Positions 6,825 to 43,657 of a stretch of DNA of 64,000 nt are shown piece after piece. A program made the translations under genes and the position numbers. This DNA comes from Candidatus Woesearchaeota archaeon (GTDB lineage: Archaea; Nanobdellota; Nanobdellia; SCGC-AAA011-G17; JACPIM01), in assembly GCA_964513145.1 (NCBI GenBank), contig CAZELK010000005.1:21488-85487 (forward strand). The letters run 5' to 3'. The notes below the pieces were generated by a model. The model was not told the DNA's origin. It did no database searches and saw nothing but the letters and a program-made list of their open reading frames with translations. Position 1 is the stretch's first letter, and every line of letters begins with the position of its first letter.

Positions 6825-7826
6825 ATGATAAAGATAGATGGGCAGCATTCTGGAGGGCAGACTTTACGTACCAGTCTAAGTTTATCAATTTTAACTCAAA
6901 AACCTTTCAAAATAATAAATATAAGGGGCAAAAGAGAAAATCCTGGTTTGCAACACCAGCATTTGACAGCAGTTAATGCATCAAAAAACATATGCAATGC
7001 CAAAGTTAAGGGCAATGTATTACATTCTAAAGAACTTGAATTTACACCTTCCAAAGTTATTCCTGGAAGGTACAATTTTGATATAGGGAGTGCAGGTTCA
7101 ACTACATTAGTTTTGGAAACACTTATGCCACCATTGTTATTTGCAAAAGAAAAATCAGTCTTGAAAATAATTGGAGGGACTTCGAATCCTTTAGCTCCAC
7201 CAGCTCTGCATATAAAAGGTGTTCTCTTATGGTATTTAAAAAATTTAGGCATAAATGTTGAAATCAATGTTGAAAAGGAAGGTTTTGTTCCAAAAGGCGG
7301 TGGAAGAATTTTAGCAAAAATTTCACCTTGCAAGAAACTAAAACCTTTGGACTTAACTGAACGAGGATCTTTAAATAAAATCTGTGTTTTTGCTGTTTCG
7401 TCACAAAGCTTAAGAGACAAAGATGTTGCAAGCAGATTGCTAGATGGATTTACCAAAGTTATTAATGATAATTTAGAACCACATAAACAATATGTTGAAT
7501 CTTTGGATCCTGGTTGTTTTATTTCAGCTATTGCTGATTACAATAACTCCAGAATAGGATATACTAATCTTGGCACTTTGAAAGTTAAAGCTGAAGATGT
7601 TGGCAGAGAATGCGCAAATAAATTATTACTTGAAATTAATTCTAATTCAACTGTTGATTATTTTACTGCAGACCAATTATTGATTTACATGGCTTTGAGC
7701 GGAAAAGGCAGAATAATTACAAGCCAAATAACAGACCATATAAAAGACAATATAGACATAATAGAGAAATTCCTGGATGTTAAATTTACAGTTAAAGATA
7801 ATGAAATAAGTGTTGATAAAAAATAA
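6825..7826 (+). CDS. rtcA: RNA 3'-terminal phosphate cyclase
   Basis: GGQTLRTSLSLS, RENPGLQHQHL, GSAGSTTLVL, GFVPKGGG, ADQLL and the catalytic His in ITDHIKDN. Confidence 0.93.
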   Translation: MIKIDGQHSGGQTLRTSLSLSILTQKPFKIINIRGKRENPGLQHQHLTAVNASKNICNAKVKGNVLHSKELEFTPSKVIPGRYNFDIGSAGSTTLVLETLMPPLLFAKEKSVLKIIGGTSNPLAPPALHIKGVLLWYLKNLGINVEINVEKEGFVPKGGGRILAKISPCKKLKPLDLTERGSLNKICVFAVSSQSLRDKDVASRLLDGFTKVINDNLEPHKQYVESLDPGCFISAIADYNNSRIGYTNLGTLKVKAEDVGRECANKLLLEINSNSTVDYFTADQLLIYMALSGKGRIITSQITDHIKDNIDIIEKFLDVKFTVKDNEISVDKK

Positions 7827-7986: not shown

Positions 7987-8601
7987 ATGGAAATTCCTCC
8001 GTTTACAAATGAGCTTGCGGAATTTGTAGGTATTTTATTGGGTGATGGTTATATAAGTCAAAATGATTATGAAGTTAAGATTTCGCTTGATAAAATTAAA
8101 GATAAAGAGTATGTCTTTTTTGTAAAAAATTTAATTTTTAATTTATTTAATATTCAAGCTAAAGCCTATCCGCGTTCTTGTGATGGTACTACAGATATAA
8201 GAATATCTAATAAAGAGTTTCATCATTATTTAACAAATGGTTTAAAGTTACAACAATCTCCTAAATTTAATCGAGCTATTATTCCAAATGAATTTTATAA
8301 TAAAGAATGCTTCTATCCTTTTTTATTACGCGGTTATTTTGATACTGATGGATGCATAACTGATACTGATAATAATGGCGTTAGATACCCAAGAGTTGAA
8401 ATGAAAATATGTAAGTCTCCAATGCAATCTCAATATATAAAAATCCTTAAAAATTTAGGAATTAGATTTGGATCTTATAGAATCGAGAATGAGGCGATTA
8501 GAATACAAATCAACGGTAAAAATGAATTAAAAAAATGGATGTTATTTATTGGTTCAGATAATCTAAAAAATATAAAAAAAGCACAAAATTTTAAAAAATA
8601 G
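7987..8601 (+). CDS. Free-standing LAGLIDADG homing endonuclease-like protein (HEG1)
   Basis: Two motifs, LAEFVGILLGDGYI and LLRGYFDTDGCI; no intein splicing residues. Its TAG stop overlaps tRNA positions 71-73. Confidence 0.85.
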   Translation: MEIPPFTNELAEFVGILLGDGYISQNDYEVKISLDKIKDKEYVFFVKNLIFNLFNIQAKAYPRSCDGTTDIRISNKEFHHYLTNGLKLQQSPKFNRAIIPNEFYNKECFYPFLLRGYFDTDGCITDTDNNGVRYPRVEMKICKSPMQSQYIKILKNLGIRFGSYRIENEAIRIQINGKNELKKWMLFIGSDNLKNIKKAQNFKK

Positions 8602-8764
8602 CGGAGAGTGGATTTGAACCACTGACCTAAACCCCAATATTTTTTTAGATATTGATCGGGTGTCTAAGACACGCATATGAGCCCATTCCGCTAATTTTAC
8701 TTAGTGACGGACACTCCTGGCTGTCCTATTGCAGTTGTAAGATTTTTTCTTAACAATCTCCGCT
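8599..8764 (-). tRNA. Initiator tRNA-Met(CAT) with four introns: 7/8 (8729-8757, 29 nt), 28/29 (8685-8705, 21 nt), 37/38 (8662-8675, 14 nt), 43/44 (8629-8655, 27 nt)
   Basis: Spliced product AGCGGAG-TA-GGAC-AGCCAGGAGT-GTCC-G-TCGGG-CTCATAA-CCCGA-AGGTC-AGTGG-TTCAAAT-CCACT-CTCCGCT-A is a fully paired cloverleaf with A1:U72 and G29-31:C39-41 initiator marks. Each intron has a 4-bp central helix and 3-nt bulge register. Confidence 0.9.
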
Positions 8765-43019: not shown

Positions 43020-43126
43020 AAGACTTCTGATGGCAAATAAATATTTATAAAGCTTTTTATTAACCTTTTTTAGAAGCTTACTAAAAATTCGTTATTTTCC
43101 GCTAACGCTTTTTATAAAAGGGTTAT

Positions 43127-43258
43127 GGGCCTATAGTTCAGCCTGGACTAAGCTTTAAGAAAAGTTTAAATCAAAAACTGGAAAAAAAGTAAGAAAATAC
43201 CAGAGAGAACACAAGATTGCGGATCTTGGAATCCGAGGTTCAAATCCTCGTAGGCCCG
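43127..43258 (+). tRNA. tRNA-Arg(GCG) with a 57-nt D-loop intron (43149-43205, position 20a/21)
   Basis: GGGCCTA/TAGGCCC acceptor, GTTC/GAAC D-stem, CAAGA-TTGCGGA-TCTTG and CGAGG-TTCAAAT-CCTCG. Central helix CTGG/CCAG sits in BHB register. Confidence 0.9.
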
Positions 43259-43657
43259 ATACATCTACTGAGCTGTTAGCGAGTAGCTGGTAGGTAGTAG
43301 GAATGAAACGATAAAAACACAAATAGTTCTAGAATTTTAAGCGATTTATTTAATTTTACTATTAATGTTTGCCAAAGTTTTAGTTTTTTTTCTTTCAATT
43401 TTTGCAATTGTTGTATTTGTTGATCATCAGGGAGTTCAAAAAGTTGTTTATGTATTGCAGAAAGTTCATTTAATTCTTTTTGTGTCTGTTGTAAACATTT
43501 ATAGATATCTAGAATCCTAGGTTCCATTAATTTAACTTCTTCAAACCTAAACCCATATAAAAAAGATTCATTTTTGATATATATTCTATAAAATATATAA
43601 AAGACAATTTAAATAAAATTCCGATTTCAAGGTCCTACATCTTTAGGTCTATTAAAA

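Follow-up and report, generated by a model that had tools for sequence, protein, structure and literature searches.

Among the closest described systems are the tRNA genes of Asgard archaea, which the locus analyzed here resembles in that most are interrupted, many at non-canonical positions and by introns with BHB motifs, and many are missed by standard software (PMC11291895). The table of Valentin-Alvarado et al. (2024; PMC11291895, Supplementary Data 4) contains intron-4 columns and lists four-intron genes in Freyarchaeia (Arg-TCT, Ile2-CAT, and Leu-GAG) and Atabeyarchaeia (Trp-CCA), as well as an Asgard Thr-CGT intron at 8/9, beginning with nucleotide 9 and hence adjacent to the 7/8 site considered below. 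A 2026 preprint gives up to five introns per tRNA gene for Asgard archaea (10.64898/2026.10.13.758758). The maximum of three introns per gene, stated in PMC4033280 and implied in PMC8450103 (papers of 2014–2021), is thus out of date, and the suggestion in an initial annotation of our locus that four introns in one tRNA gene might be undescribed did not survive comparison with these records. The present locus differs from the Asgard genes in belonging to a DPANN archaeon (Woesearchaeota) with a ~1-Mb genome of 28% GC, and in carrying four introns in its initiator tRNA gene, as against three for the initiator tRNA in the table of PMC11291895. In addition, Kaneta et al. (2018; PMC5829648) describe the L1 (CSL) loop as a conserved element of the Asgard and TACK enzymes, whereas a single α-type EndA without such loops is encoded here.

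Short BHB or relaxed-BHB introns at many cloverleaf positions, several per gene, are also a feature of the Thermoproteales, according to two papers that summarize the work of Sugahara et al. (2007, 2008) (PMC4033280; PMC8450103). Their introns are packed so tightly as to require removal in a set order, which is also expected for the gene described here, and in both cases they turn over rapidly between relatives. The Thermoproteales are set apart by a stated maximum of three introns per gene, by an (αβ)2 EndA with a Crenarchaea-specific loop, and by their being thermophiles with GC-rich tRNAs. In the red alga Cyanidioschyzon merolae, nuclear tRNA genes hold up to three BHB-type introns each, placed in the D arm, the anticodon loop, and the T loop, and RT-PCR showed that they are removed in an order set by motif stability; the nuclease of this eukaryote, however, is a heterotetrameric Sen enzyme, and none of its tRNA genes exceeds three introns (PMC3728597).

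For DPANN lineages with an α4-type EndA, Kaneta et al. (2018; PMC5829648) report increased tRNA gene disruption, including in one Woesearchaeota and one Pacearchaeota genome, and predict "unidentified disrupted tRNA genes" because full sets were not found by tRNAscan-SE. Text searches of passages of that paper found no four-intron gene and no 7/8 intron. Similarly, a literature search for 7/8 as a tRNA intron position, in which the notation "7/8" itself was unsearchable, returned nothing relevant. Against this background, the four-intron initiator gene described here is a well-supported fresh example of an already recorded phenomenon.

Structure of the interrupted initiator tRNA gene

The gene lies in a 64,000-nt stretch of DNA from a Candidatus Woesearchaeota archaeon, hereafter the window. 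The initial annotation had proposed an initiator tRNA-Met with introns at 7/8, 28/29, 37/38, and 43/44, had named a helix for each site (that at 37/38 with one mismatch), and had stated that excision of 29, 21, 14, and 27 nt leaves a paired initiator cloverleaf. All of the named helices were present on the sequence, and excision at the exact coordinates given in Table 1 produced a 75-mer that ARAGORN called as tRNA-Met(CAT) with a fully paired cloverleaf (21 of 21 stem pairs and eight of eight conserved features). The junctions also agreed with the BHB cut rule and with intronless orthologs, as detailed below. The marks of an initiator were all found in the spliced product, namely a CAU anticodon, an A1:U72 pair, and three G:C pairs at 29-31/39-41; its T loop was ordinary. 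The GC content of the exons was 57%, vs. 28% for the genome. At the level of sequence, the observation of a real initiator tRNA-Met gene with four BHB-type introns is therefore confirmed.

Table 1. Features of the initiator tRNA locus, with the neighboring and splicing-related genes. Plain coordinates are window positions; the exons (7, 23, 9, 6, and 30 nt) are read from 8764 to 8599 on the minus strand.
Feature	Position	Strand	Description
Initiator tRNA-Met(CAU) gene	8599..8764	-	166-nt precursor coding region giving a 75-nt mature tRNA; CCA not encoded
Exon 1	8758..8764	-	Positions 1-7, AGCGGAG, 5′ acceptor strand; 7/7 pairs with CUCCGCU of exon 5
Intron 1	8729..8757	-	29 nt, at 7/8; HBh′ type
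Exon 2	8706..8728	-	Positions 8-28: U8 A9, D arm with 10-nt D loop, G26, U27 C28
Intron 2	8685..8705	-	21 nt, at 28/29; HBh′ type
Exon 3	8676..8684	-	Positions 29-37: G29-G31, C32 U33 C34 A35 U36 A37; contains the CAU anticodon
Intron 3	8662..8675	-	14 nt, canonical 37/38; hBH/BHL type
Exon 4	8656..8661	-	Only 6 nt, positions 38-43, ACCCGA
Intron 4	8629..8655	-	27 nt, at 43/44
Exon 5	8599..8628	-	Positions 44-73: variable loop, T arm, 3′ acceptor strand, discriminator A73
TATA-box-like UUUUAUAAA	8802..8810	-	38-46 nt before position 1; shares nucleotides with the stop codon of the LAGLIDADG ORF upstream
Six-T run	8593..8598	-	Directly after A73
LAGLIDADG ORF, 204 aa	7987-8601	+	Free-standing, double-motif; flanks the initiator gene
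LAGLIDADG ORF, 240 aa	8803-9525	-	Free-standing, double-motif; flanks the initiator gene
RtcA (RNA 3′-phosphate cyclase)	6825-7826	+	PF01137, 2e-75; ~770 nt from the initiator gene
tRNA-Arg(GCG)	~43126-43259 (C5:64613-64746)	+	One D-loop intron of ~57 nt
EndA	G000:C7:33755-34318 (L001 1474-2040)	-	188 aa, N- and C-terminal domains; PF01974 1.4e-30, PF02778 1e-8
RtcB ligase	G000:C6:76969-78150		

A UUUUAUAAA-type motif was found at an equal distance upstream of the initiator gene in G003 and G008, and we infer that UUUUAUAAA serves as promoter of the tRNA gene. T-runs also follow the initiator gene in G003 and G019; the six-T run is likely to be an archaeal transcription stop.

Each of the introns has the 4-bp central helix and the two 3-nt bulges on opposite strands that mark the BHB class, with intron 3 reaching three of the four central pairs. 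The central helix of intron 1 uses G2-G5 (GCGG/CUGC, 4/4 pairs with one G.U) beside a 5′ bulge A6 G7|A, and is joined to an 8-bp hairpin with one bulged U; the exon-side outer helix is absent. Intron 2 pairs U23-G26 (UCCG/CGGA, 4/4 Watson-Crick) and has a 4-bp hairpin (CUAA/UUAG) and, again, no exon-side helix. For intron 3 the central helix is CUCA/UUAG, with one mismatch, an intron-side helix of ~1 bp, and the anticodon stem as outer helix. Intron 4 pairs A38-C41 (ACCC/GGGU, 4/4) and has a 6-bp hairpin (CAAUAU/AUAUUG), together with an exon-side helix of 1 bp that reaches 3 bp only if a 4-nt 3′ bulge and the end of intron 3 are included. Cutting by the rule of a 4-nt central helix followed by two bulge nucleotides gave exactly the junctions required by the cloverleaf in all four introns. 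In the strict hBHBh′ form each side carries an outer helix of 2 bp or more, and none of the four introns shows this; they belong to the relaxed HBh′ and hBH types, which the broader BHB intron class is accepted to include.

The reading was also recovered by a SPLITS-like enumerator, blind to the answer, which lists all site pairs that obey the BHB rule and possess an outer helix, removes every non-overlapping subset of them, and rates what is left by its fit to a cloverleaf. Applied to the 166-nt precursor, it returned one solution only, identical to the four-intron reading, with 21/21 pairs and 8/8 features. When the interior of the precursor was shuffled 400 times with dinucleotide composition preserved and the acceptor strands and T arm kept, none of the shuffles reached even 20 stem pairs and seven conserved features. 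It could be argued, on the ground that the assembly is of metagenome type and on no other, that the introns are chimeric insertions into a normal tRNA gene, or that the resemblance is due to chance; given the shuffles and the recurrence of these introns, identically placed, in independently assembled genomes of other species, we accord this explanation virtually no probability.

Folding of the precursor was consistent with part of the motif set. The local MFE structure of nt 1-45 was exactly the intron 1 motif, and that around intron 4 was the full BHB, with GAC at the end of intron 3 paired to G46-C48. The local MFE structures around introns 2 and 3 differed from the BHB folds, a competing hairpin being formed at intron 3, and in the MFE structure of the whole precursor the acceptor stem was formed in place of the intron 1 central helix. 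Two other gene architectures were tried and rejected. Group I or II self-splicing introns do not fit segments of 14–29 nt, which are far too short and have no Rfam matches, and a split or permuted tRNA gene does not fit five exons that are colinear within 166 nt.

Orthologs within the order

Relatives were collected by BLAST of the locus against 60 related genomes and by a pattern search in five more, yielding 24 loci in 24 genomes. A strict BHB scan, which solved 12 of 20 relative loci, was replaced by a motif-free spliced alignment to the mature sequence followed by a check of BHB geometry. Two of the readings come from spliced alignment only, namely L011 (G024), for which BHB refinement failed, and L021 (G009); L106 (G002) was left unsolved entirely, and in L018 (G028) the first three or four nucleotides are missing or lie far upstream. 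Across the order, the orthologs carry zero to five introns at about ten positions in mature sequences that are nearly identical. No introns were found in G043, G022, and G033, one in G024 and G009, two in G008, and three in G023, G039, G032, G011, G003, G056, G001, and G007. Besides the present genome, five others have four introns (G004, G034, G059, G030, and G036), and one, G019, has five (7/8, 28/29, 37/38, 53/54, and 59/60). In the two alignment-only readings, the single intron was ~98 nt long and near 37/38 (G024) or at 53/54 (G009). The same two genes (L011, G024:C6, and L021, G009:C33) appear to have C33 in place of U33, with the anticodon loop GGGCCCAUAACCC. C33 is found in some eukaryotic initiator tRNAs.

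The three intronless orthologs were called as tRNA-Met by ARAGORN and were identical to the inferred mature RNA at 59–68 of 75 positions, and the spliced gene of G003, a member of the same genus, was identical at 74 of 75. Because intronless and spliced orthologs are so nearly identical to the product, they confirm all four junctions independently. The junctions cannot slide, since a shift of one base at 7/8 would alter G7 or U8, both of which are fixed in the intronless orthologs.

The introns themselves are conserved in part. That at 7/8 is homologous in four genomes (this one, G003, G008 of the same family, and G019); the 3′ strand of its central helix is CUGC, UCGC, or CCGC, all of which pair with GCGG (G2-G5), and the changes are one-sided only. 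The 28/29 intron was present in 10 loci and displayed a compensatory change between exon and intron, from UCCG/CGGA (six loci) to UUCG/CGAA (three loci) or the reverse. Covariation was likewise seen in the 15/16 and 53/54 introns of relatives. Within the genus the introns form a mosaic, with 7/8, 28/29, 37/38, and 43/44 in this genome, 7/8, 20a/21, and 53/54 in G003, and 20a/21, 37/38, and ~44/45 in G001. Viewed through these sequences, the initiator gene is one state of a fast-changing ortholog family with zero to five introns.

These data bear on the question of whether the gene is real but one or more of its segments, for example that at 37/38 or 7/8, has other boundaries or is removed by an activity other than EndA. 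What speaks for it is that intron 3 has only three of four central pairs and a competing hairpin, and that introns 1, 2, and 4 are of the relaxed HBh′ type while EndA resembles the α4 type of strict specificity. On the other hand, the fixed junctions and the single solution of the enumerator leave little latitude for different boundaries, in most intron 3 orthologs the helix at this site is a fully paired CUCA/UGAG, and neither group I/II nor any other RNA family was matched by segments far too short for self-splicing. We therefore judge a different intron set or mechanism to be very improbable and retain the four-intron reading with EndA as the nuclease.

Other features of the relatives were noted during this comparison. 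The five-intron gene of G019 (L003 129-303, plus strand; G019:C83) includes a 6-nt exon, UUCAAA, and forms a perfect cloverleaf (21/21). Its automatic five-intron solution was rejected for a wrong T loop in favor of a manual parse with 21/21 pairs and 8/8 features. No spare copy of exon 1 was found within 90 nt upstream of the 7/8 genes of this genome, G003, and G008; in G019, a copy matching exon 1 at six of seven positions lies 31 nt upstream of the initiator gene. A second, intronless initiator-like tRNA was seen in G007 (L104; G007:C1:46384-46398 region), with a G1-type acceptor end and a bacterial-looking UUCGAAU T loop; it may represent contamination or a transferred gene.

tRNA census and splicing enzymes

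The genome assembly comprises 978 kb in 18 contigs and is 98.8% complete. ARAGORN found 15 tRNA genes in it and the Rfam tRNA model 18, numbers which, at this completeness, indicate that tRNA gaps in DPANN genomes are probably annotation artefacts. An intron-aware scan resolved 27 tRNA genes, at least 23 of them with introns (one to four): none in four genes, one in ten, two in nine, three in three, and four in the initiator gene, or ~1.5 introns per resolved gene. Further tRNA genes are certainly hidden in the genome beyond these 27. A tRNA-Arg(GCG) gene in the window (Table 1) is mis-modeled by ARAGORN as having an anticodon-loop intron; the central helix of its D-loop intron, CUGG/CCAG, was read by eye and left unscored, and the intron holds an AAGCTTT...AAAAGTTT hairpin.

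The prediction that standard tRNA finders would miss the initiator gene was borne out, in that the unspliced DNA gave no tRNA call with ARAGORN, with or without intron mode, or with cmscan (Infernal) at Rfam gathering thresholds. A second initiator tRNA gene, which the initial annotation had proposed as a check, was not found elsewhere in the 98.8%-complete genome. The mature sequence shared no 12-mer with the rest of the genome, two other GGGCTCATA sites were not tRNA-like, and the other resolved CAT tRNA (C7:25807-25928) is of the elongator type, with G1:C72 and without the G:C run.

It might still be supposed that the locus is a decaying pseudogene or relic, and that the cell uses another initiator tRNA which is unassembled or too fragmented to recognize. 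Points in favor are the division of the assembly into 18 contigs, the frequency with which tRNA genes escape detection, and a census of only 27, which implies that others are hidden. A relic, however, would have to be reconciled with a perfect cloverleaf with all conserved features, four intact BHB motifs, near-identity of the spliced sequence to that of a congener with different introns, orthologous introns conserved with compensatory changes, a conserved TATA box and T-run, and the absence of any mature-sequence 12-mer elsewhere in the genome. We consider such decay extremely improbable and treat the gene as functional.

The genome encodes both an endonuclease (EndA) and an RNA ligase (RtcB). 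A search for a paralog or β subunit of EndA at E ≤ 10 found none in the genome, and, as a single α-type gene without paralog, its sequence points to an α4-type homotetramer. It aligned without gaps to the α4 EndA of M. jannaschii (1a79) over residues 42–188, and it lacks the six extra residues of the Tyr-His loop of the N. equitans α subunit as well as CSL and ASL. The enzyme showed none of the features of broad-specificity EndAs: it has no second (β) subunit, is not a fusion of three units, and carries no Lys-rich loop inserted close to the catalytic His. Its N-terminal extension is Lys-rich and poorly conserved in relatives. An RNase Z-like gene (L001 2034-2984) divergently adjoins that for EndA.

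The α4-type EndA is said to cut strict BHB motifs only (PMC3488258), and relaxed-motif cleavage has been tied to CSL, ASL, and the N. equitans-type loop (PMC3488258; PMC5829648). In Kaneta et al. (2018; PMC5829648), broad specificity is credited to an inserted "L3" loop, whereas the enzyme described here has no insertion relative to that of M. jannaschii. The tension between the relaxed motifs of the introns and a loop-less α-type EndA is the most interesting residue of the finding.

The Pfam match of RtcB is split (G000:C6:75368-78150; L102/L103), with positions 1-44 and 49-426 ~1.4 kb apart within or near an 879-aa open frame, and RtcB probably contains an intein.

Neighboring genes and proposed maturation

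RtcA adjoins the initiator gene not only in this genome but also in G003, G001, G007, and G008, all of the same family, and in G030 of another family; to judge from these gene orders, the location of a gene for an RNA-end-healing enzyme beside that of a heavily spliced tRNA is conserved. Of the two LAGLIDADG ORFs that flank the gene, the upstream one ends inside the tRNA TATA box and the other overlaps the 3′ end of the tRNA by 3 nt. The genome contains 22 LAGLIDADG_3 matches, most of them in long ORFs and looking like inteins; about four are free-standing, two of which are those beside the initiator gene. A LAGLIDADG gene was found next to the initiator gene in five of ~24 loci (here and in G003, G009, G039, and G056) and was absent beside most other relatives' genes. 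Since the genomes hold several free-standing copies and many inteins, this adjacency is suggestive only.

Taken together, the sequence data make it very probable that the locus is a functional initiator tRNA-Met gene of a member of the Woesearchaeota (DPANN) with four short introns cut by EndA at BHB-like motifs. A precursor of ~180 nt would be transcribed from the gene's own TATA-box promoter, EndA would cut out the four introns, RtcB would join the five exons, and CCA would be added to give the 75-nt initiator tRNA. The central helices of introns 1, 2, and 4 use G2-G5, U23-G26, and A38-C41 and so preclude the acceptor, D, and anticodon stems while they exist; the precursor would thus be expected to switch between alternative folds. 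Being self-contained modules with strong hairpins, introns 1, 2, and 4 would probably be removed first. The intron 3 motif requires C39-C41:G29-G31 and cannot form while the intron 4 helix exists, and splicing would appear to be ordered, with intron 3, whose outer helix is the anticodon stem, probably last. Cleavage at intron 1 may precede transcription of the 3′ acceptor strand; such an early, co-transcriptional cut is suggested because the MFE structure of the full precursor prefers the acceptor stem.

A broader proposal, which we regard as doubtful, is that in the Woesearchaeales a loop-less α4-type EndA routinely removes relaxed HBh′ introns, that the sole initiator tRNA needs an obligatory, possibly co-transcriptional, order of refolding, and that the 7/8 intron might travel with the upstream LAGLIDADG gene in a manner resembling collaborative homing. 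Joint travel of the intron and the LAGLIDADG gene would account for the sharing of the 7/8 intron by congeneric genomes whose other introns differ.

For the organism, the consequence of the four-intron reading is that eight endonuclease cuts and four ligations would be needed to produce its sole recognizable initiator tRNA, which would make splicing essential for all translation initiation. The combination of relaxed motifs with a loop-less α-type EndA challenges the textbook view in which substrate range is linked to EndA architecture, and the orthologs, with zero to five introns, offer a natural series for the gain and loss of archaeal tRNA introns.
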